Counted from the stretch's first letter, positions 1 through 16,003 are shown. The stretch is DNA of 64,000 nt from Escherichia coli (GCF_002854065.1 NZ_CP024147.1); one strand, 5' to 3'. Notes: generated from the sequence alone by a model not told the origin. Numbers and translations are program-made.

Positions 1-2271
1 GGCGTTATCACGACGCGCCATCTGGTTGCCTTCCGGCGTCCAGCTACCGGCGAAAATCCAGCAACCACAGGAGGTTGTACCGTCATCGCGCAGTTGGGCG
101 AACGAGCTAAGTTGTTGGCCTTTCTTGACGATAACCGCACCGGTTGCCGGATCGGTAATATCGGCCAGCGCCTTACCGTTGCTCTCCATCGCTACTTCTT
201 CCGACTTCGGCTCATGCGGAATGGCGTAGTTCCAGGTCATGTTCAGCACCTGGTCCGGGTTCGCGCCACCCTGTTCGGCATACATCTTGCGCAAGCGCAG
301 GAAGATACCGGAGAGGATCTCGCCGTCAGTCAGCGCAATCCCCGGGGCGTCCGCACCTTTCCAGTGCCACTGCAACCAGCGACCTGAGTTAACGATTGAA
401 CCGTTCTCTTCCGCGAAGCAGGTCGATGGCAGACGGAACACTTCGGTCTGGATCTTCGACGAGTCAACTTCGTTCAGCTCACCGTGGTTCTGCCAGAAGT
501 TAGAGGTTTCAGTGTTCAGCGGGTCGATGGTGACGAGGAACTTCAGTTTCGACAGACAACCGATCACTTTGTTTTTGTTCGGGAATGAGGCAACAGGGTT
601 AAAGCCCTGGCAGATATAGCCATTGACCTTGCCCTCTTTCATCATCTCGAAGTATTGTAGGACGTCGTAGCCTTTATCCCACTTCGGCAACCAGTCAAAG
701 CCCCAGCTATTTTCCGCCGTCGCTTTATCACCAAAGAAGGCCTTCATCATAGAGACGAAGAATTTCGGGTAGTTGCCCCAGTAGTTTACCTGGCCTTCCA
801 GCAGCGGTTTTGGCGTGTTGGCGGTAAGGTAGGTTTGCAGATCGGTCTGCTTCTCGCTTGGCAGCGTCATGTAACCTGGCAGGCTCTGCGACAGAAGGCC
901 CAGGTCCGTCAGCCCCTGAATATTGGAGTGACCGCGCAGGGCGTTAACGCCGCCGCCTGCCATCCCCATGTTGCCGAGCAGCAGCTGGATCATCGCCATC
1001 GTACGAATGTTTTGCGCACCAACGGAGTGTTGCGTCCAGCCGAGGGCATACAGGAACGAGGCAGTTTTATCGTGAGCACTGGTTTCTGCGATGTATTCGC
1101 AGACTTTCAGGAACGCGTCTTTTGGCGTACCACAGATGTTTTCAACCACATCTGGCGTGTAGCGGGAAACGTGCTGTTTCAGCAAGTTCCACACGCAGCG
1201 CGGATGTTGCAGCGTGGTATCGCGTTTGGCGAAGCCGTTTTCGTCCAGTTCGTAAGTCCAGGAGGATTTATCGTACTTGCGTTTTTCCGCGTCGTAGCCG
1301 GTGAACAGGCCATCTTCAAAGCCGTAATCCTCACGCACGATCAGGCTGGCGTTGGTATAGGCTTCGGTGTATTCGCGGTTGAATTTTTCATTGTTCAGCA
1401 GGTACAGCAATACGCCTGACAGGAAAGCAATGTCAGTACCGGAACGAATAGGGGCATAGTAGTCAGCTACCGCCGCCGTACGCGTAAAGCGAGGATCGAT
1501 CACAATCAGCTTCGCGCCATTGTGAATTTTGGCTTCCATCGCCCAGCGGAACCCGACCGGGTGAGCTTCAGCGGCGTTACCGCCCATCACCACGACGAGG
1601 TTGGCGTTCTTGATGTCGACCCAGTGGTTGGTCATCGCACCGCGACCAAATGTTGGAGCAAGACTTGCTACCGTTGGTCCGTGTCAGACACGCGCCTGGT
1701 TGTCGACCGCGAGCATACCCAGCGCGCGGGAGAATTTTTGCGTTAAATAGCCGGTTTCGTTACTCGACGCGGAAGCACACAGCATCCCGGTGGAGAGCCA
1801 GCGGTTAACAGTCACGCCTTCGGCGTTTTGCGCAATGTAGTTAGCATCGCGGTCTTCTTTCATCAGTTTGGCGATGCGATCAAACGCCTCTTCCCAACTG
1901 ATTTGCTGCCATTTATCAGAACCTGGCGCACGGTATTCCGGAAACTTCAGACGGCTTTCGGAGTGGATGAAATCCACCAGGCCAGCGCCTTTCGGACAAA
2001 GTGCACCGCGGTTGACCGGGTGATCCGGATCGCCTTCGATATGGAAGATAGATGCTTTGGCGTTTTTTGCTCCGTCACCGAGGCTGTACATCAACAGCCC
2101 ACAGCCTACGGAACAATAGGTGCAGGTATTACGGGTTTCGCGGGTGCGCAGCAGTTTATACTGCCGGGTTTCCGCGAGTGCTACGCTGGGTGCAAAACCC
2201 AGTGCCGCTGCCGTGGTGCCTGCCATACCGCCAGCGCAGATCTTAAAGAACTGCCTTCTGCTGACCTGCAT
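1..2271 (-). CDS. fdoG: Formate dehydrogenase-O major subunit (selenoprotein), partial; N-terminus at 2271, runs off window start
   Basis: N-terminal Tat motif MQVSRRQFFK; molybdopterin oxidoreductase-like sequence; in-frame TGA at 1684-1686 with the same frame staying open to position 1. Confidence 0.9.
1640..1686 (-). other. Selenocysteine UGA codon (1684-1686) plus predicted SECIS hairpin immediately 3' in the coding frame
   Basis: Frame continues ...VDNQARV-U-HGPTVASLAPTFGRG...; position matches the Sec site of FdoG/FdnG/FdhF-type enzymes; hairpin not folded computationally. Confidence 0.6.
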
Positions 2272-2464
2272 GGATTGCTCCTTGTTTCGACATTGTCACG
2301 TCCCATTTACATTCGCTTGCTGCGTGTGCAGGGAGTGGGAGTTATTTTTCTTTGCGGAAGGGGCCGCAAAGGTCCAGAATTGGCTCAATTTCCCTCCATC
2401 CAGGAAGGGTTTGTAACAGAATACCATAATGTTGGTGTGTGTGTTCTTATCTGGTTAAGAGAAA

Positions 2465-3298
2465 GTGAAAAAAACACAGCAAAAAGAAATCGAAAATGTG
2501 ACAAATATCACAGGTGTTCGTCAAATTGAGTTATGGCGGCGTGATGATTTACAACACCCACGGTTAGATGAGGTCGCGGAAGAAGTTCCCGTTGCGCTGG
2601 TCTACAACGGCATTTCGCATGTGGTGATGATGGCGTCGCCCAAAGACCTTGAGTACTTTGCGCTCGGTTTTTCGCTTTCCGAGGGGATAATAGAAAGTCC
2701 GCGCGATATCTTCGGCATGGATGTCGTTCCTTCCTGTAATGGTCTTGAAGTACAAATTGAGCTTTCCAGCCGCCGCTTTATGGGGTTGAAGGAGCGCCGC
2801 CGGGCGCTGGCGGGACGTACGGGCTGTGGCGTATGCGGCGTGGAGCAACTTAATGACATCGGAAAACCGGTGCAGCCGCTACCGTTCACCCAGACGTTTG
2901 ATCTCAACAAACTGGATGATGCATTACGTCATCTCAACGATTTTCAGCCAGTGGGGCAACTGACTGGTTGTACTCACGCCGCTGCCTGGATGTTGCCATC
3001 TGGCGAACTGGTCGGCGGGCATGAAGACGTGGGTCGCCATGTGGCGCTGGACAAACTGTTAGGCCGCCGGTCACAAGAAGGGGAAAGCTGGCAGCAAGGT
3101 GCGGTACTGGTTTCCAGTCGTGCCAGTTATGAAATGGTGCAAAAGTCGGCGATGTGCGGCGTAGAGATTTTGTTTGCGGTGTCTGCCGCGACCACGCTTG
3201 CTGTAGAAGTGGCTGAGCGCTGTAATCTGACACTGGTAGGTTTTTGTAAACCGGGTCGGGCAACGGTTTATACCCATCCGCAGCGTTTGAGCAATTAA
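2465..3298 (+). CDS. fdhD: Formate dehydrogenase accessory sulfurtransferase FdhD
   Basis: 277-aa ORF, divergent from fdoG, recognised FdhD sequence. Confidence 0.9.
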
Positions 3299-3303
3299 TT
3301 AAA

Positions 3304-3345
3304 ATAAGTCCTGCGATATATATTAAATTGCAGGACTTATTCATT
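3304..3345 (+). terminator. Inverted repeat after fdhD (ataagtcctgc...gcaggacttat), putative terminator
   Basis: Perfect 11-bp inverted repeat just 3' of the fdhD stop. Confidence 0.4.
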
Positions 3346-3450
3346 TCGTGAATTTTATTATTTTATTTATAAACAAAATGCGTGTAGTGGCGTTTTCTTT
3401 TTTCATTTATTATGTTCACTCTCTTATCTATATATTTATAAGGCAATTAA

Positions 3451-4506
3451 ATGAAAAGGAATTTATTATCTTCCGCTATTATAGTCGCCATCATGGCCCT
3501 CGGTCTGACGGGTTGTGATGATAAAAAAGCCGAAACAGAAACGCCCCCGCCTGCCAATAGTCAACCTGCCGCACCAGCTCCTGAAGCGAAACCTACTGAA
3601 GCTCCCGTTGCAAAAGCAGATGCTAAACCTGAAACACCTGCGCAACCGGTGGTCGATGAACAAGCGGTTTTCGACGAAAAAATGGATGTCTATATCAAGT
3701 GCTACAACAAGTTACAGATCCCTGTACAGAACAGTCTGGCGCGTTATGCTGACTGGCTGAAAGATTTTAAACAGGGGCCAACGGGTAAAGAGAGCCTTGT
3801 TTATGGCATCTACGGCATTAGTGAATCCAATCTCTCTGAGTGTCAAAAAGGAATAAAAAGAGTCGTGGCGTTAACGCCTGCGCTGCAACCTATTGATGGC
3901 GTGGCGGTGAGTTATATTGATGCTGCCGTGGCGTTGGGTAATACCATTAACGAAATGGATAAATATTACACCCAGGAAAATTATAAAGACGATGCGTTTG
4001 CGAAAGGGAAAACGCTGCACCAGACATTCTTAAAAAATCTGGAAGCCTTTGAACCTGTAGCAGAATCTTATCATGCGGCGATTCAGGAAATTAATGATAA
4101 GCGCCAGCTTGCGGAACTGAAAAATATTGAAGAAAGAGAAGGGAAAACATTCCACTACTACTCTCTGGCAGTCATGATTTCAGCGAAACAAATTAATAAC
4201 CTGATATCGCAAGAGAAGTTTGATGTTGATGCGGCAATGAAGAAAGTCTCTGAACTGGAAACGCTGGTAGCGCAGGCCAAAGAAGCGGATAAAGGCGGTA
4301 TGAATTTCTCGTTCATTAATTCGGCAGACCAGTATCAACTCGAGACTAAAAAATATGTTCGCCGCGTCAGAGATAAAGTCCCGTACTCTGACTGGGATAA
4401 AGAGCATCTTCAGGATGCAAACACAAGCTGGATGGTCGAAGACTCATTTCCACGAGCGTTACGCGAGTACAACGAAATGGTTGATGACTATAATAGCCTG
4501 CGTTAA
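3451..4506 (+). CDS. yiiG: Lipoprotein YiiG (lipobox LTGC, Pro/Ala-rich linker)
   Basis: 351-aa ORF with signal peptide and lipobox; K-12 synteny. Confidence 0.85.
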   Translation: MKRNLLSSAIIVAIMALGLTGCDDKKAETETPPPANSQPAAPAPEAKPTEAPVAKADAKPETPAQPVVDEQAVFDEKMDVYIKCYNKLQIPVQNSLARYADWLKDFKQGPTGKESLVYGIYGISESNLSECQKGIKRVVALTPALQPIDGVAVSYIDAAVALGNTINEMDKYYTQENYKDDAFAKGKTLHQTFLKNLEAFEPVAESYHAAIQEINDKRQLAELKNIEEREGKTFHYYSLAVMISAKQINNLISQEKFDVDAAMKKVSELETLVAQAKEADKGGMNFSFINSADQYQLETKKYVRRVRDKVPYSDWDKEHLQDANTSWMVEDSFPRALREYNEMVDDYNSLR

Positions 4507-4527
4507 ACGTTTTTGATGATAAATGCA

Positions 4528-4552
4528 GTGTCGGATGCGGCGCATCCGACAC
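4528..4552. terminator. Palindromic hairpin (gtgtcggatgcg/cgcatccgacac) between convergent yiiG and frvR remnant
   Basis: Inverted repeat seen directly. Confidence 0.4.
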
Positions 4553-4554
4553 AG

Positions 4555-4993
4555 TTCACCCCTTGTGAAGTAACTCCATAAATGCCTCATATCCTGTTAA
4601 CCCGGCAATAACTTCTGCCGGATGCTGACACAATACGCTTGCCAGATAGCTGAATATTTTTAGCTCATGACGCGCATCGGCGGCGGCGCAGGCGATCAAA
4701 ACATGGTTAATGACTTCGTTATTCACCTCAACTGATTGGGCGAGGGTAATAAAAAATCCACGAAAACGTCGCTCCTGTTCGCTCCAGCAATGTGGGATGG
4801 CGAGGCGATTAACAATCAGGTTTTCACCTTCGCCTTCGCGGGCGATGATCCGTTGCGCTTCATCGGCGGTAATATGGTGTTGTGCGACTAATTGCGCACA
4901 AATTTGCCGGGTAATATGTTGCCAGCTTTCACCGCGTACATTCGAATAATGAAAACTTCCGGGGGCAGAGAAAAAACGCTCCGGTTGCTGGCG
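4555..4993 (-). pseudogene. frvR: 3' remnant (146 codons) of PTS-regulator gene frvR, C-terminal EIIA-like domain (AIPH motif); 5' part replaced by IS1
   Basis: Manual minus-strand translation gives an open frame from the IS1 junction to a stop at 4555-4557: ...NLIVNRLAIPHCWSEQERRFRGFF...MELLHKG*; lies next to yiiG as frvR does in K-12. Confidence 0.6.
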
Positions 4994-5008
4994 GGTAATG
5001 ACTCCAAC

Positions 5009-5512
5009 TTATTGATAGTGTTTTATGTTCAGATAATGCCCGATGACTTTGTCATGCAGCTCCACCGATTTTGAGAACGACAGCGACTTCCGTCCCAGCC
5101 GTGCCAGGTGCTGCCTCAGATTCAGGTTATGCCGCTCAATTCGCTGCGTATATCGCTTGCTGATTACGTGCAGCTTTCCCTTCAGGCGGGATTCATACAG
5201 CGGCCAGCCATCCGTCATCCATATCACCACGTCAAAGGGTGACAGCAGGCTCATAAGACGCCCCAGCGTCGCCATAGTGCGTTCACCGAATACGTGCGCA
5301 ACAACCGTCTTCCGGAGCCTGTCATACGCGTAAAACAGCCAGCGCTGGCGCGATTTAGCCCCGACGTATCCCCACTGTTCGTCCATTTCCGCGCAGACGA
5401 TGACGTCACTGCCCGGCTGTATGCGCGAGGTTACCGACTGCGGCCTGAGTTTTTTAAATGGCGGAAAATCGTGTTGAGGCCAACGCCCATAATGCGGGCG
5501 GTTGCCCGGCAT
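5009..5512 (-). CDS. insB: IS1 transposase InsB frame (expressed as InsAB' by -1 frameshift)
   Basis: 167-aa [16 protein letters not shown]... identical to copy 2. Confidence 0.9.
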
Positions 5513-5706
5513 CCAACGCCATTCATGGCCATATCAATGATTTTCTGGTGCGTACCGGGTTGAGAAGCGGTGTAAGTGAACTGCAGTTGCCATGTTTTAC
5601 GGCAGTGAGAGCAGAGATAGCGCTGATGTCCGGCAGTGCTTTTGCCGTTACGCACCACCCCGTCAGTAGCTGAACAGGAGGGACAGCTGATAGAAACAGA
5701 AGCCAC
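5431..5706 (-). CDS. insA: IS1 InsA (transposition inhibitor / N-terminal part of transposase)
   Basis: 91-aa [26 protein letters not shown]... Confidence 0.9.
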
Positions 5707-5761
5707 TGGAGCACCTCAAAAACACCATCATACACTAAATCAGTAAGTTGGCAGCATCACC

Positions 5762-7063
5762 ATACGTCCCGAGGTAAATATTAAAGTTCTCCATATCCAT
5801 CACATTAGCGAACTGATAAGACGCATGAATGGTGTGAATGGTGTACGTCCCTTCATCATCAATCCAGCAGTCGTTATCACAAACTACACCGCTGAATTCA
5901 TCAATCTTATTGTGCGCGTAGATATAACCGAGCTCGAAACGTTTCCACAGCGCGTTAATCCCGGCAGTGAAATCTTTCTCATTATTAGCATCTAAATAGG
6001 CGGTATTAAGATTAACCACAATGCCATTGTCCGGATCCGTTTTCAGGCCGTTCCAGGTCATGCTCATACCATAGCCGGTACGATCGGACTGATCGACAAA
6101 ATTACCCTTGCTATCGGTATAACCATAAGCATTATTTACCACGTTCGCTTCCATCGCTGCGGAAACGGTGAATTCTTCCGTCGGCGACCAGGCAATTACT
6201 GGGCGCAGATAAGCAACATTTTTCTGCTGCTCCATATCGCGTCCATGATAATTACCGTCATTATATAAAGATGTTCCGTCTTCAAGTAACGTATTTAATT
6301 CAAAATACCAGTTATCGAGTTGTTTGCTGACGAGGAAATTACCGCCAGCGTTAGAGCGCCCGCGGCCCTCTTTCATCATATAGATATAACCGCTGCCATC
6401 GTCATAAAGATCGTTCGCAGTATTACCGGAATGTTCAACAAAGGTATCCTGATTCAGCGGGAACATATCGTAGGCTTCAAAACGGCCTACTTTGACCTTC
6501 CAGTCGTTTTCTTTGCCAAAGAAGAATACCGCATCATCGATATTTACTGAACCGTGCATATCACCCAGCGGTTGTGCGGAGAACCCGGCGAAATAACCGT
6601 TGTCCATCTTTCGCATACCGTCAAAACCTAACAGAATACGACCATTGAGATTCCACTGTTCATTAGTGGGATCGCTATTCACATCAGCGTTGGTCATTGC
6701 CAGCAGGCCATGATTACTTTCCGCATCCATATTAAATTCTACGTCGCCGTAGATTTTTAAATCGCCATAACCTGAAAGCAAAAGATTAGGTGAGGTGGCA
6801 TTTTTCTTTGCAGATTCCGTCGTTGCCTGTCCATTTACCGGCGTATTGCCCTGAGCGGCCTTAATTTCGCGGATCTCAGCGGCTTGTTGTGTCTGCAGCT
6901 GTTTAACCTGGCTCTCTGCTTTTGCTGCCCGCATTTCTGCCGCTTCCAGGCGTTCTTCCAGCAATGCCATGCGTTGTTCCAGCGTTAAATGCTGTGTTTT
7001 TGCCATACCGGTACTACATGCCAATAATAAACCGATGGCTAAAGATAATGTCGATTTTTTCAT
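5762..7063 (-). pseudogene. 5' part (434 codons) of a sugar-porin-like outer membrane protein gene, interrupted by IS1; the annotated ORF's last 8 codons (GDAANLLI*) come from the IS1 end
   Basis: Signal peptide MKKSTLSLAIGLLLACSTGMA, N-terminal coiled-coil (LEQRMALLEERLEAAEMRAAKAESQVKQLQ), then Gly/Tyr/Asn/Asp-rich sequence typical of beta-barrel glycoporins; ORF runs into the IS1 inverted repeat. Confidence 0.75.
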
Positions 7064-7540
7064 TATTTACGTTCCCTGAAATAAAGGAGGCCCTACGCTT
7101 TCCAAAAGGAATACGTATATAGAGAAATATAAAGTGTGCACTTTCGAATTTTTAATCCAACTTCAGCAGGCCGATGGATAGTATCCCGCCGCATAATATG
7201 AGTAAATCCGCTGATTTCCTGGAACGTGAGGAATATAACAATAGTGCCGTTTTTAACTAAATATCGTAAAAAATATTAGATATGATTCACGCTGACTCAT
7301 AAGCCACAAATATAAATAATGTTTAGACAAATTATCTGAGACATTTAAACATTCACAAAATCATTAAAGAATGATTTTTTATTCACAAGATTTATTTTAC
7401 CTACTAATATGTGCCTTACGCCGCAAAATTTATCCTTCACTCTGCTTTATATTGTCACGACTTCACGACATATCCGCGCTCATCACAAACCCGCCCCGCT
7501 ATTACAATTAACGTAAATATTTTTTCATGGAGTCCGATTA
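7064..7540. promoter_or_regulatory. AT-rich divergent intergenic region between porin gene and PTS EIIA-like gene; contains palindrome AATCATT-N4-AATGATT (7358-7375) flanked by attcacaa direct repeats
   Basis: Sequence inspection only; no promoter experimentally placed. Confidence 0.3.
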
Positions 7541-7694
7541 ATGGCAGCTCTTACTGCAAGCTGTATTGACCTGAATATTCAGGGCAATGGCACTTATTCC
7601 ATTCTGAAACAGTTAGCGACAATGGCGTTACAAAACGGTTTTATCACCGACTCACACCAGTTCCTGCAAACCCTGCTGCTGCGCGAAAAAATGC
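7541..7694 (+). pseudogene. 5' fragment (51 codons) of a PTS EIIA (fructose/mannitol-type) gene, possibly frvA, truncated by IS1 copy 2
   Basis: ATG at 7541 with GGAG upstream; MAALTASCIDLNIQGNGTYSILKQLATMALQNGFITDSHQFLQTLLLREKM resembles EIIA N-termini; frame stops inside the IS1 repeat. Confidence 0.5.
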
Positions 7695-7749
7695 GGTGAT
7701 GCTGCCAACTTACTGATTTAGTGTATGATGGTGTTTTTGAGGTGCTCCA

Positions 7750-8025
7750 GTGGCTTCTGTTTCTATCAGCTGTCCCTCCTGTTCAGCTACTGACGGGGTG
7801 GTGCGTAACGGCAAAAGCACTGCCGGACATCAGCGCTATCTCTGCTCTCACTGCCGTAAAACATGGCAACTGCAGTTCACTTACACCGCTTCTCAACCCG
7901 GTACGCACCAGAAAATCATTGATATGGCCATGAATGGCGTTGGATGCCGGGCAACCGCCCGCATTATGGGCGTTGGCCTCAACACGATTTTCCGCCATTT
8001 AAAAAACTCAGGCCGCAGTCGGTAA
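7750..8025 (+). CDS. insA: IS1 InsA
   Basis: 91-aa ORF identical to copy 1. Confidence 0.9.
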
Positions 8026-8447
8026 CCTCGCGCATACAGCCGGGCAGTGACGTCATCGTCTGCGCGGAAATGGACGAACAGTGGGGATACGTCGGGGCTA
8101 AATCGCGCCAGCGCTGGCTGTTTTACGCGTATGACAGGCTCCGGAAGACGGTTGTTGCGCACGTATTCGGTGAACGCACTATGGCGACGCTGGGGCGTCT
8201 TATGAGCCTGCTGTCACCCTTTGACGTGGTGATATGGATGACGGATGGCTGGCCGCTGTATGAATCCCGCCTGAAGGGAAAGCTGCACGTAATCAGCAAG
8301 CGATATACGCAGCGAATTGAGCGGCATAACCTGAATCTGAGGCAGCACCTGGCACGGCTGGGACGGAAGTCGCTGTCGTTCTCAAAATCGGTGGAGCTGC
8401 ATGACAAAGTCATCGGGCATTATCTGAACATAAAACACTATCAATAA
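7944..8447 (+). CDS. insB: IS1 transposase InsB frame
   Basis: 167-aa ORF identical to copy 1; A6C slippery motif ttaaaaaactc at about 7999-8009. Confidence 0.9.
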
Positions 8448-8462
8448 GTTGGAGTCATTACC

Positions 8463-8564
8463 GGGACGTATTACTCCATTCTGGATAGCGACGGCGATAA
8501 AAAACACGGTGATGATACTGATGACCGTTACGGCGCACGCGTTCGCTTTAAATACTTCTTCTGA
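8463..8564 (+). pseudogene. Displaced 3' end of the porin gene (33 codons including the 9-bp target duplication, then stop)
   Basis: Starts with gggacgtat (reverse complement of 5762-5770) and reads in frame YSILDSDGDKKHGDDTDDRYGARVRFKYFF*, a classic beta-barrel C-terminus with terminal Phe. Confidence 0.65.
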
Positions 8565-8604
8565 TGAAGGCGCGGTGCTGGATATTTTCCGGCACCGCAA
8601 CTCA

Positions 8605-8919
8605 TTAAGGCAGGTAAAACACTTCTTGCAGCTCGCTACTCACCGGGCTGTTATCCGGGTTAGCTGGCATAACGTCGGTCATATATTTCCACCAACGTTG
8701 GCAGATTTCAGTGCTGGCTACCGCATTCCACCGTTCTTCAGATTCAATCTCTACCATGGCAAACAGCAGATTACGCGCTTTGTCGAGGTAAATGGCGTAG
8801 TTATGCGCACCGTGAGATTTCAACACTGCTTCCAGTTCCGGCCAGATGGGGTTATGCCGACGCTGATACTCTTCGTGGGCGTCGGGGTTAACCTGCATGA
8901 CAAAGGCTTTGCGGATCAT
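8605..8919 (-). CDS. rhaM: L-rhamnose mutarotase
   Basis: 104-aa [31 protein letters not shown]...; downstream of rhaD. Confidence 0.9.
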
Positions 8920-8928
8920 GTTTGCTCC

Positions 8929-9753
8929 TTACAGCGCCAGCGCACTGGCTAGTGGTGTAACGCCGAAGCGCTTGCCGAGCGCTATCAACTCTTCACGGCT
9001 GATGGTCTGTTTCATGCCGCCCATCGAATAAATCTTCACTAATACTTGTGCTGATTTTTCTGCGGTGTCGATTAAACCGAATGTTTCATCCAGCGTCGGT
9101 CCGGAACCGAACACACCGTGGAAGGGCCACAACACCAGCGAATGTTTCTGCATCTCTTGTGCGGTCGCCTGGCCGATTTCGTCCGTGCCGGGCACCATCC
9201 ACGGCAGAATGCCAACGCCATCCGGGAATACCACCAGACACTCGGTGCTGCCTTCCCACAGTTGGCGAGTAAAGACCGCGGTGTCGTTTTCCAGTACATA
9301 GGTGAGGGCGATCAGGTTGGTGGCGTGGCAGTGCATGATCACCCGATCTTTACCGTTGGTGGCTTTAATGCGCTCGCAGTGGGAGAGAAAGTGAGCCGGA
9401 AGTTCAGAAGTTGGAACGGCTTCGTTGGTTAACCCCCAGAGAATATGGTAGCCCGCGCCGTCGCTGTCGACTTTTACGACGCCTAAGTTAGCTGCAGGAT
9501 CAAGCTGGACGTTACGGAAGAATTTGCCGGAGCCGGTGACAATAAACGGCGTATTTGCCAGTAAAGGCATGGGCTGGCTGAGCGGAATATAGCGCGGTTG
9601 TGGGTGGAAGTTGTCGTGATAAAGCGCGATATCGGCGTCATCCAGGCGCAGCGTCAGGTTGCCGCCGTTGCGCTCGTCCCAGCCTTTCAGCCAGGCATCG
9701 GTGGTGGCTTTGATCATTCCCTGGACAAACCAGGACTGGGTAATGTTTTGCAT
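8929..9753 (-). CDS. rhaD: Rhamnulose-1-phosphate aldolase
   Basis: Start placed at [25 protein letters not shown] (274 aa); longer ORF-track call runs upstream into the REP array. Confidence 0.9.
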
Positions 9754-9797
9754 GTTCTGTGTTCCTGTAAATTCGGTGTTGTCGGATGCACGACCCG

Positions 9798-10196
9798 TAG
9801 GCCGGATAAGGCGCTCGTGCCGCATCCGGCAATCAATGCCTGATGCGACGCTGTCGCGTCTTATCAGGCCTACAACTATTGCCGACCTGTAGGCCGGATA
9901 AGGCACTTGTGCCGCATCCGGCAATCAATGCCTGATGCGACGCTGTTGCGTCTTATCAGGCCTACAACTGTTGCCGACCTGTAGGCCGGATAAGGCACTT
10001 GTGCCGCATCCGGCAATCAATGCCTGATGCGACGCTGTCGCGTCTTATCAGGCCTACAACTATTGCCGACCTGTAGGCCGGATAAGGCACTTGTGCCGCA
10101 TCCGGCAATCAATGCCTGATGCGATGTCGCGTCTTATCAGGCCTACAACTGTTGCCGACCTGTAGGCCGGATAAGGCACTTGTGCCGCATCCGGCA
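9798..10196. repeat. BIME/REP array: about four tandem ~100-bp units, each with two REP palindromes
   Basis: Unit gtaggccggataaggcRctYgtgccgcatccggcaatcaatgcctgatgcgacgctgtYgcgtcttatcaggcctacaactRttgccgacct repeats head-to-tail with point differences. Confidence 0.85.
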
Positions 10197-10200
10197 GTGT

Positions 10201-13213
<3,013 letters not shown>

Positions 13214-14050
13214 ATGACCGTATTACATAGTGTGGATTTTTTTCCGTCTGGTAACGCGTCCGTGGCGATAGAACCCCGGCTCCCGCAGGCGGATTTTCCT
13301 GAACATCATCATGATTTTCATGAAATTGTGATTGTCGAACATGGCACGGGTATTCATGTGTTTAATGGGCAGCCCTATACCATCACCGGTGGCACGGTCT
13401 GTTTTGTGCGCGACCATGATCGGCATCTGTATGAACATACCGATAATCTGTGTCTGACCAATGTGCTATATCGCTCGCCGGATCGATTTCAGTTTCTCGC
13501 CGGGCTGAATCAGTTGCTGCCACAAGAGCTGGATGGGCAGTATCCGTCTCACTGGCGCGTTAACCACAGCGTATTGCAGCAGGTGCGACAGCTGGTTGCA
13601 CAGATGGAACAGCAGGAAGGGGAAAATGATTTACCCTCGACCGCCAGTCGCGAGATCTTGTTTATGCAATTACTGCTCTTGCTGCGTAAAAGCAGTTTGC
13701 AGGAGAACCTGGAAAACAGCGCATCACGTCTCAACTTGCTTCTGGCCTGGCTGGAGGACCATTTTGCCGATGAGGTGAATTGGGATGCCGTGGCGGATCA
13801 ATTTTCTCTTTCGCTGCGTACGCTACATCGGCAGCTTAAGCAGCAAACGGGACTGACGCCTCAGCGTTACCTGAACCGCCTGCGACTGATGAAGGCTCGA
13901 CATCTGCTACGTCACAGCGAGGCCAGCGTTACTGACATCGCCTATCATTGCGGATTCAGCGACAGTAACCACTTTTCAACGCTTTTTCGCCGAGAGTTTA
14001 ACTGGTCACCGCGTGATATTCGTCAGGGACGGGATGGCTTTCTGCAATAA
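13214..14050 (+). CDS. rhaS: AraC-family activator RhaS
   Basis: 278-aa ORF with C-terminal AraC-type HTH. Confidence 0.95.
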
Positions 14051-14123
14051 CGCGAATCTTCTCAACGTATTTGTACGCCATATTGCGAATAATCAACTTC
14101 GTTCTCTGGCCGAGGTAGCCACG

Positions 14124-14972
14124 GTGGCGCATCAGTTAAAACTTCTCAAAGATGATTTTTTTGCCAGCGACCAGCAGGCAGTCGCTGTGGCTGACCGTTA
14201 TCCGCAAGATGTCTTTGCTGAACATACACATGATTTTTGTGAGCTGGTGATTGTCTGGCGCGGTAATGGTCTGCATGTACTCAACGATCGCCCTTATCGC
14301 ATTACCCGTGGCGATCTCTTTTACATTCATGCTGACGATAAACACTCCTACGCTTCCGTTAACGATCTGGTTTTGCAGAATATTATTTATTGCCCGGAGC
14401 GGCTGAAGCTGAATCTTGACTGGCAGGGGGCGATTCCGGGATTTAGCGCCAGCGCAGGGCAACCACACTGGCGCTTAGGTAGCATGGGGATGGCACAGGC
14501 GCGGCAGGTTATCGGTCAGCTTGAGCATGAAAGTAGTCAGCATGTGCCGTTTGCTAACGAAATGGCAGAGTTGCTGTTCGGGCAGTTGGTGATGTTGCTG
14601 AATCGCCATCGTTACACCAGTGATTCGTTGCCGCCAACATCCAGCGAAACGTTGCTGGATAAGCTGATTACCCGGTTGGCGGCTAGCCTGAAAAGTCCCT
14701 TTGCGCTGGATAAATTTTGTGATGAGGCATCGTGCAGTGAGCGCGTTTTGCGTCAGCAATTTCGCCAGCAGACTGGAATGACCATCAATCAATATCTGCG
14801 GCAGGTCAGAGTGTGTCATGCGCAATATCTTCTCCAGCATAGCCGCCTGTTAATCAGTGATATTTCGACCGAATGTGGCTTTGAAGATAGTAACTATTTT
14901 TCGGTGGTGTTTACCCGGGAAACCGGGATGACGCCCAGCCAGTGGCGCCATCTCAATTCGCAGAAAGATTAA
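14124..14972 (+). CDS. rhaR: AraC-family activator RhaR (GTG start assumed at VAHQLKLL)
   Basis: ORF-track call starts earlier at 14013; start chosen to give the 282-aa protein I recall. Confidence 0.8.
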
Positions 14973-16003
14973 TTCGCCATGCCGATGCCGACGATGTTAG
15001 CGGCGACAATAATCACCACACAACCGAGGCTCAACACCGTTACCGGACGGCGTCCTGCATTGTTCCACTCTTTCAGCTCCAGCCCGACGATACCGCCGCA
15101 CAATACATAGAAACTCATATGCAGCATCCAACTGATGTAGTCATACTGCGCCGGAATGCGGGCGTGGCCCCAGGCATAGAAAAAGAATTGCAGATACCAC
15201 ATCAACCCGCCCAGTGCCGAGAGTAACACATTGTGAATGATCAGCGATTTTGCCAGCGAGAAGTCGGATTTTAGCGACAAATCCTTCACTTTTGCCAGAC
15301 GAATAAAACAGAAACCGAGGTTAATGATCGCGCCGCCGCCCATGATGACAACATAGCTTGGCAGAGCGACATACAGTGGATCGACGCCTAGTGCGGCAGC
15401 GGCTTCATGCATCGGTTTTGCGGCGTTCATCGCAAAGGACATCCCGGCAGAGAAAATGCCGCACATCACCGCCAGCACCAGTCCTTTTTTCAGATTGAAC
15501 TCTTCGGCTTTAATGCCCATCTTGCGCTCTTTCAACTGCCCGGCTCGAGTTACAATCCCTACGCCAATCAGCGCCACCAGAACGCCGAGCAACGTCATGC
15601 GTCCGCCTTCGGTGCTAATCAACACATCGAAATTGCCGTTGATAATTGGCGTCATCAGCGTACCGACAATCAACGTAATGCCAATGGCGATGCCAATTCC
15701 CATCGACATGCCGAGATAACGCATGGTCAGGCCGTAGTTGATATTACCGATCCCCCACATAGCGCCGAACAGAAAAACAGGCAGCAGCGTAGAGAGACTA
15801 AACGAGCTGTAATACGCCCAGAAATTCGGTAGTAACAGGGCGCTGATGGCCCACGGCAGAATAATCCACGAAACAATCCCACCGACTGACCACATGGTTT
15901 CCCATGACCATTTTTTTACTTTTTTGAACGGAGCGTAAAAACAGGCTGCACTGGCCGCGCCGATCAAATGCCAAAATATCCCCATCGTAATCGCGTTACT
16001 CAT
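14969..16003 (-). CDS. rhaT: L-rhamnose-proton symporter
   Basis: 344-aa polytopic membrane protein. Confidence 0.95.

Follow-up and report, generated by a model that had tools for sequence, protein, structure and literature searches.

The interval between yiiG and rhaM in the stretch of Escherichia coli DNA analyzed here (64,000 nucleotides of NZ_CP024147.1, hereafter the window) is very probably a decayed and rearranged yiiG-frv-porin-rhaM block, in which three IS1-dependent changes, listed here without any order in time, would account for every junction: an IS1 insertion into a carbohydrate porin gene, a 4.1-kb deletion ending at an IS1 terminus, and the inversion of a segment between two oppositely oriented IS1 copies. 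The following map was built from ORF listing, repeat finding, and direct reading of the window sequence.

3451-4506, plus strand: yiiG, the intact left neighbor; a 351-aa ORF whose counterparts in collinear E. coli loci are annotated as YiiG family proteins
4556-4993, minus strand: frvR 3' remnant, 438 bp; codons 438-582 plus stop, with the EIIA-like C-terminal domain
4994-5761, minus strand: IS1-L, 768 bp; its IRR end abuts the frvR remnant and its IRL end the porin 5' part
5762-5770, no strand: first copy of the duplicated 9-bp porin target, ATACGTCCC; reads as the exact reverse complement of 8463-8471
5762-7063, minus strand: carbohydrate porin (Pfam Porin_8) codons 1-434, inverted; 1,302 bp, by tblastn
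7064-7540, no strand: native divergent porin-frvA intergenic region, AT-rich (34.6% G+C), inverted together with both gene stubs
7541-7694, plus strand: frvA 5' remnant, codons 1-51 plus one base
7695-8462, plus strand: IS1-R, 768 bp; its IRL end abuts the frvA remnant and its IRR end the porin 3' remnant
8463-8471, no strand: second copy of the duplicated 9-bp porin target, GGGACGTAT; a single occurrence in the intact O157 porin
8463-8564, plus strand: porin 3' remnant, the final 33 codons (GTYYSILDS...RFKYFF) and the stop, oriented as in the ancestor and lying beside rhaM
8605-8919, minus strand: rhaM, the intact right neighbor; a 104-aa ORF, annotated in collinear loci

Two terminal pieces of the frv operon are retained in this interval. 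The frvR piece comprises 145 residues matching residues 438-582 of O157 FrvR with one substitution, by both tblastn and translation, and it aligns to positions 442-586 of the 586 in the NCBIfam model NF007366 (E 3e-79) with 266.9 bits, below the curated whole-protein cut-off of 426. The frvA piece matches O157 FrvA residues 1-51 with two substitutions (it is 97.7% identical to the intact frvA of strain 4FM and lies inside a block 98.8% identical to O157) and covers positions 1-51 of 148 in NF007389, again below the whole-protein threshold (78.7 bits against a curated cut-off of 151). Near-identity to O157, at one and two substitutions, and a shared position in the yiiG-rhaM interval identify the pieces as frvR and frvA orthologues; as partial profile matches under the cut-off, they are gene remnants and not functional members of these families. 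The original prediction had placed the last 146 codons of frvR at 4555-4993 on the minus strand, and the identity and strand hold, but the remnant begins one base later, at 4556, and has 145 codons plus the stop. The 51 N-terminal codons of frvA that it placed at 7541-7694 are borne out by both the alignment to O157 FrvA and the NF007389 match.

Neither stub would be expected to have a function. The first start codon in the frvR frame leaves only 56 aa, and an identical copy of this fragment in strain CUWW06 is already annotated as a pseudogene; the frvA stub ORF ends within IS1 at 7699 and encodes a 52-aa peptide. FrvX has no tblastn match anywhere in the window, and the only matches to FrvB in the window are frw paralogues at 36-49% identity. 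The frw ORFs have their full length, at 833, 359, and 106 aa, and so does the pflD ORF behind them (765 aa), in line with the earlier description of the frw PTS cluster as intact. Two outcomes had been named beforehand as arguing against the frv assignment, a failure of the fragments to align to the FrvR C-terminus and the FrvA N-terminus or the presence of frvX or frvB sequences in the window, and neither was found. The frv PTS (EIIA and EIIBC), FrvX, and FrvR would all have been lost, amounting to a loss of function of the whole system.

Comparison with intact loci gave the extent of the rearrangement. Many E. coli carry an ancestral-type order of yiiG(+), frvR(-), frvX(-), frvB(-), frvA(-), porin(+), and rhaM(-), with strain 4FM and O157 PV15-279 as examples, while the K-12-type strains inspected (a7, GE3, and M8) have no porin between frvA and rhaM. 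GE3 and M8 would have been closer references but lack the porin, and the O157 PV15-279 sequence (L027), in the same orientation as the window, was used instead. Window positions 2000-4993 align to L027 228-3221, positions 5762-7694 align in reverse to L027 9267-7335, and positions 8462-9923 align to L027 9258-10719, such that L027 9259-9267 falls in both the inverted block and the right-flank block. The 1,933-bp segment at 5762-7694 is therefore antiparallel to O157, as it is to 4FM, while both flanks are parallel. Missing from the window are L027 3222-7334, or 4,113 bp (4,125 bp in the comparison with 4FM), a stretch that holds frvX and frvB between the 5' part of frvR and the 3' part of frvA; none of this sequence occurs elsewhere in the window. 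The breakpoints of this deletion, 4993/4994 and 7694/7695, coincide with IS1 ends, and the 9-mers flanking them are unrelated. How the locus is now arranged, how much was deleted, which segment is inverted, and where the porin is split can thus be read directly from the DNA. The rha genes beside the locus are full length, and the rha operon remains intact.

The two IS1 copies, at 4994-5761 and 7695-8462, are inverted with respect to each other, 100% identical over 768 bp, and the only IS1 copies within the window. Each is exactly 768 bp long, ends in the imperfect terminal inverted repeats GGTGATGCTGCCAACTTACTGAT / GGTAATGACTCCAACTTATTGAT, and contains overlapping insA (91 aa) and insB' (167 aa) ORFs. 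The IS1 transposase is made by frameshifting, with insA and insB' in the 0 and -1 frames, and the same sequence is annotated in CUWW06 as an IS1B family transposase with programmed frameshift. The 9-bp target duplication of IS1 is also present, with GGGACGTAT doubled in an inverted configuration: the inner flank of IS1-L, ATACGTCCC, and the outer flank of IS1-R, GGGACGTAT, are reverse complements at 9/9 positions, a match with a chance probability of 4^-9 for one specified pair. The 9-bp target is single-copy in the intact porin and a reverse-complement pair in the window, and this exchange of duplication halves, one copy on an inner flank and the other on an outer flank, marks the segment as inverted. 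The frvR-side 9-mer TTGCTGGCG (4985-4993), on the other hand, is unrelated to the frvA-side 9-mer GCATTTTTT, which at 7686-7694 reads as the reverse complement of AAAAAATGC; junctions lacking a common duplication are what a deletion that stops at an IS1 terminus would leave. The earlier statement that the IS1 junctions carry no matching target duplication is thus correct for direct repeats and incorrect in that 5762-5770 is the reverse complement of 8463-8471.

The gene between the IS1 copies is a 464-codon carbohydrate porin of Pfam family PF16966, divided into codons 1-434 at 7063-5762 (99.5% identity over residues 1-434 by tblastn) and the last 33 codons at 8463-8561. The cut falls exactly at the duplicated 9-bp site, which encodes GTY. 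The porin identity of this gene, cut at the 9-bp site, had been overlooked in the original prediction. The 5' ORF runs into IS1 as far as 5735, gaining the tail GDAANLLI. C-terminal aromatic residues are typical of outer-membrane beta-barrels, and because the last 30 residues are gone, including the C-terminal aromatic residue, the truncated porin should not assemble. Both the porin and the intergenic region belong natively to this site, since 4FM and O157 carry them at the same chromosomal position with 98.5-98.8% identity, and the spacer at 7064-7540 is gap-free and collinear inside the alignment of 5762-7694 to both strains. The IS1-truncated product of the window has the GenBank accession AUJ94179.1, with a 4.64-Mb E. 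coli contig as its source, and is present in dozens of public assemblies, including many from human gut metagenomes.

One IS1-adjacent deletion of the middle of frv and nothing more, with the IS1-porin-IS1 block as a separate insert, was the reading first proposed for this locus. The deletion is real: frvX and frvB are lost along with the 5' part of frvR and the 3' part of frvA, and the frvR and frvA junctions share no duplication. However, the two fragments do not both flank the IS1 structure as had been described; the frvA remnant sits between the IS1 copies, on the strand opposite to the frvR remnant and inverted relative to it. Furthermore, the porin and intergenic region are native to the locus in many E. 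coli, and the two parts of the split porin carry the 9-bp duplication in inverted form. The strand of the frvA remnant and the inverted segment make a single deletion insufficient, so that at least the porin insertion and the inversion must be added, and we consider the deletion-only account very unlikely. Even less credible, to the point of near-certain dismissal, is the movement of a compound transposon (IS1, porin part, frvA part, IS1) from elsewhere to replace the frv genes. Two inverted IS1 copies around a 1.9-kb cargo do have the architecture of known IS1 compound transposons, but the outer flanks, TTGCTGGCG and GGGACGTAT, form no direct duplication, the cargo is the locus's own DNA with the remainder of the porin directly outside IS1-R, and the frvA remnant/IS1 junction occurs elsewhere in 0 of 5,426 complete genomes. 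With neither a direct outer duplication nor foreign cargo, insertion of a compound transposon was rejected.

A more serious concern is that the orientation of the segment reflects an assembly choice, with the true chromosome being collinear and carrying, besides the deletion, a porin gene into which IS1 simply inserted with a direct 9-bp duplication, and the segment being oriented arbitrarily or both isomers being present in the culture. Short reads cannot orient the segment because the 768-bp inverted repeats are perfect; the two isomers share identical junction sequences and reads shorter than 768 bp would not discriminate between them. Strain EC09, moreover, has a simple IS1 insertion with a direct duplication at the same site. 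Against this stands a public contig, L016 (ERR10017574; three samples), that is 100% identical to window positions 1660-4719 and then 5765-7722, joining yiiG and the frvR remnant straight to the porin 5' end via a CGT microhomology without crossing any IS1. Because it fuses the frvR remnant to the porin 5' end, it can derive only from the inverted isomer, and it is independent physical support for the inversion. In addition, the protein match in a 4.64-Mb single-contig genome suggests, but does not prove, a long-read assembly. We therefore regard an assembly artifact as improbable, while flip-flop between both isomers may occur. A 2.2-kb segment with inverted IS1 IRL ends on both sides recurs in many public assemblies.

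Returning to the decayed yiiG-frv-porin-rhaM block, how each of the three changes took place, and in what order, we infer. IS1 would have entered the porin gene at the 9-bp sequence GGGACGTAT, 30 codons short of its end. The 4.1-kb deletion ending at an IS1 terminus, removing the frvR 5' part, frvX, frvB, and the frvA 3' part, may have arisen by intramolecular transposition (an adjacent deletion) or by recombination between two direct IS1 copies, and both routes leave the same product. The segment between the oppositely oriented IS1 copies could have been inverted in the same step that gave birth to the second copy, as a duplicative inversion by intramolecular replicative transposition, or by later homologous recombination across the 768-bp inverted repeats. 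When IS1 transposes replicatively within one molecule, it leads to adjacent deletions or to duplicative inversions, the latter of which yield the exchanged-duplication pattern. Homologous recombination between two independent insertions may give the same product as a duplicative inversion.

Public short-read contigs bear on the order of events. Three of them (L005, L006, and L012) contain the IS1-cut porin with a whole frvA, and L005 also runs from frvA to the frvR 5' part, which suggests that the porin insertion came first. L005 stops 6 bp short of the frvR breakpoint, with no IS1 bases. Two others (L017 and L021) contain the frvA remnant/IS1 junction with a whole porin and rhaM, suggesting the opposite order, with the frvA junction first; they may, however, be chimeras, since they are metagenome contigs whose SNPs relative to the window fall on the porin side only, as in walks through two strains. 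A further two, L014 and L015, may be chance finds, as they were chosen by the look-up itself. A simple IS1 insertion at the frvR site is predicted to yield a FrvR(1-440)-IS1 fusion, and no such protein is recorded.

The intact 6-kb structure was sought in complete E. coli genomes, and none covers at least 80% of it. In a census of 5,426 complete RefSeq E. coli genomes, the frvR remnant/IS1 junction occurred in one (CUWW06), the frvA remnant/IS1 junction in none, the IS1/porin 5' junction in none as an exact match, and the IS1/porin 3' junction in three (ECZP248, 2018-11-3CC, and TBU0218_11-3CC); with these counts of 1, 0, 0, and 3, the four junction sequences can serve as lineage markers. CUWW06 is 99.98% identical to the window in both flanks and keeps the frvR remnant/IS1 junction but, starting at the inner end of that IS1, has lost window positions 5762-15921, including the porin stub, the frvA remnant, IS1-R, rhaMDABSR, and most of rhaT. 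ECZP248 and 2018-11-3CC, both of which were inspected, retain the IS1/porin 3' junction, but all DNA to its left is gone as far as the last fdhD codons, and TBU0218_11-3CC has the same junction match at identical coordinates. The porin 3' remnant at this junction in ECZP248 is annotated as a carbohydrate porin with a missing N-terminus, and the rha flank of this strain, the only one of the three compared, is only 98% identical to the window. CUWW06, the three strains including ECZP248, and contig L016 represent successive further deletions from the same IS1 copies.

In EC09, where the frv operon is intact, an IS1A copy with seven mismatches occupies the identical 9-bp target, oriented the other way and flanked by a direct duplication; this is an independent insertion in the same target. 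A homologous plasmid porin is interrupted by IS1 approximately 30 bp from the GGGACGTAT position. Taken with the IS1/porin 3' junction in ECZP248, 2018-11-3CC, and TBU0218_11-3CC, this suggests that the GGGACGTAT site near the porin 3' end is likely a genuine IS1 insertion hot spot, and the frvR-porin interval a recurrent zone of IS1 decay. The reuse of one 9-bp IS1 target by independent lineages is the only mildly notable point, and beyond annotation the significance of the locus is small. For annotation, the frvR stub, the frvA stub, and the two porin pieces are best treated as pseudogenes left over from a single ancestral block, the gene enclosed by the two IS1 elements belongs to the locus itself and was not imported, and the strand and order of genes in the interval should not be taken as the ancestral arrangement. 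The locus illustrates cleanly how, in an E. coli lineage rich in IS1, this element erodes sugar-uptake loci that are dispensable. No publication on this allele came up in a literature search on frvA and IS1.

Among the closest known systems is frvABXR of E. coli K-12, a cryptic fructose-like PTS with the M42 peptidase FrvX and the regulator FrvR. The window fragments are orthologous to FrvR 438-582 and FrvA 1-51 and lie in the same yiiG-rhaM interval, but only 145 of 582 FrvR codons and 51 of 148 FrvA codons are kept, and the ancestral form of the window lineage, unlike the K-12-type strains inspected, had a porin between frvA and rhaM. The split porin resembles the RafY-type glycoporins of plasmid raf clusters, with approximately 80% protein identity to the porin of pNDM_P21_SE1_04.20, whose neighbors are alpha-galactosidase, MFS transporter, and GH32 genes. 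In contrast to that porin, the one in the window is chromosomal, divergent from frvA, and presumably non-functional, with its C-terminal 30 residues detached.

Other IS1 alleles in this region show that IS1 repeatedly strikes the frvR-porin interval in diverse E. coli. In HZ13, IS1 links the rhaM side with a 633-bp fragment of frvR, and in 4FM and the B-strain AS19, IS1 lies in the porin-frvA spacer, all with breakpoints that differ from those of the window; the only shared breakpoint is the porin target in EC09, where IS1 is oriented oppositely. The window also matches the classical IS1 events closely. As in an adjacent deletion, one IS end keeps its old junction while the neighboring DNA is gone without a target duplication, and as in a duplicative inversion, there is a second identical inverted copy, an inverted middle, and a 9-bp duplication split between inner and outer flanks. 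Nothing here is mechanistically new relative to those events, and the mechanism is that of textbook IS1 genome decay at a dispensable locus, with the window combining a deletion and an inversion at one site.

The yiiG-porin locus is a mosaic, as seen when window positions 4171-4993 and 5762-7694 are each compared with strains 4FM and a7. The stretch from yiiG to the 3' remnant of frvR (4171-4993) shares 97% identity with the K-12-type strain a7 and only 88% with 4FM, whereas the 5' part of frvA together with the spacer (within 5762-7694) shares 98% identity with 4FM and 86% with a7. In the K-12-type strains a7, GE3, and M8, the interval between frvA and rhaM is without the porin.

Several comparison sequences carry deletions at this locus. 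In CUWW06 (9076-9925 of that sequence), both flanks are 99.98% identical to the window and the junction between the frvR remnant and IS1 is retained as in the window, with 10,160 bp deleted from the inner end of this IS1 copy onward (equivalent to window 5762-15921), a loss that takes in the porin stub, the frvA remnant, and the other IS1 copy and runs through the rhamnose genes to a rhaT stub. A smaller deletion of 1,045 bp, with 3 bp of CGT microhomology, joins window positions 4719 and 5765 in a public short-read contig from ERR10017574 (L016, junction at 3058-3060); it removes the frvR-side IS1 copy together with 274 bp from the frvR stub on one side and 3 bp from the porin flank on the other, and the junction is present in three samples. 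ECZP248 and 2018-11-3CC retain the junction between IS1 and the porin 3' part (at about 8278-9150 of their own sequences) and are without yiiG, every frv gene, and the porin 5' part, with the opposite IS1 end adjoining the last codons of fdhD. The rha flank of ECZP248 is only 98.1% identical to that of the window.

Within the rhamnose genes, the rhaD-rhaA interval (window 9791-10196) holds a REP/BIME-like array, a 92-bp unit repeated in tandem in 4.4 copies at 96% identity, whose copy number varies among strains.

At the frvR breakpoint, three short-read contigs, L005 (SRR14573963, at base 1), L014, and L015, have ends at which the frvR 5' sequence terminates 6-8 bp past the window's breakpoint, and these ends contain no IS1 sequence. 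Two of these three ends may be an artefact of the retrieval mode.

Strain EC09 (6258-7043 of its sequence) carries a separate IS1A insertion in the same 9-bp porin target as the window, ATACGTCCC, which is directly duplicated; the element lies in the opposite orientation to the window's, and the frv operon is intact. Because this insertion independently occupies the identical target, the site appears to be a hot spot for IS1. A homologous porin, about 80% identical in protein sequence to that of the window, is found on plasmid pNDM_P21_SE1_04.20 (6965-8287 of the comparison sequence) within a raffinose-type cluster encoding an alpha-galactosidase, an MFS transporter, and a GH32 protein, and it too is truncated by IS1, about 30 bp away from the position equivalent to the window's.
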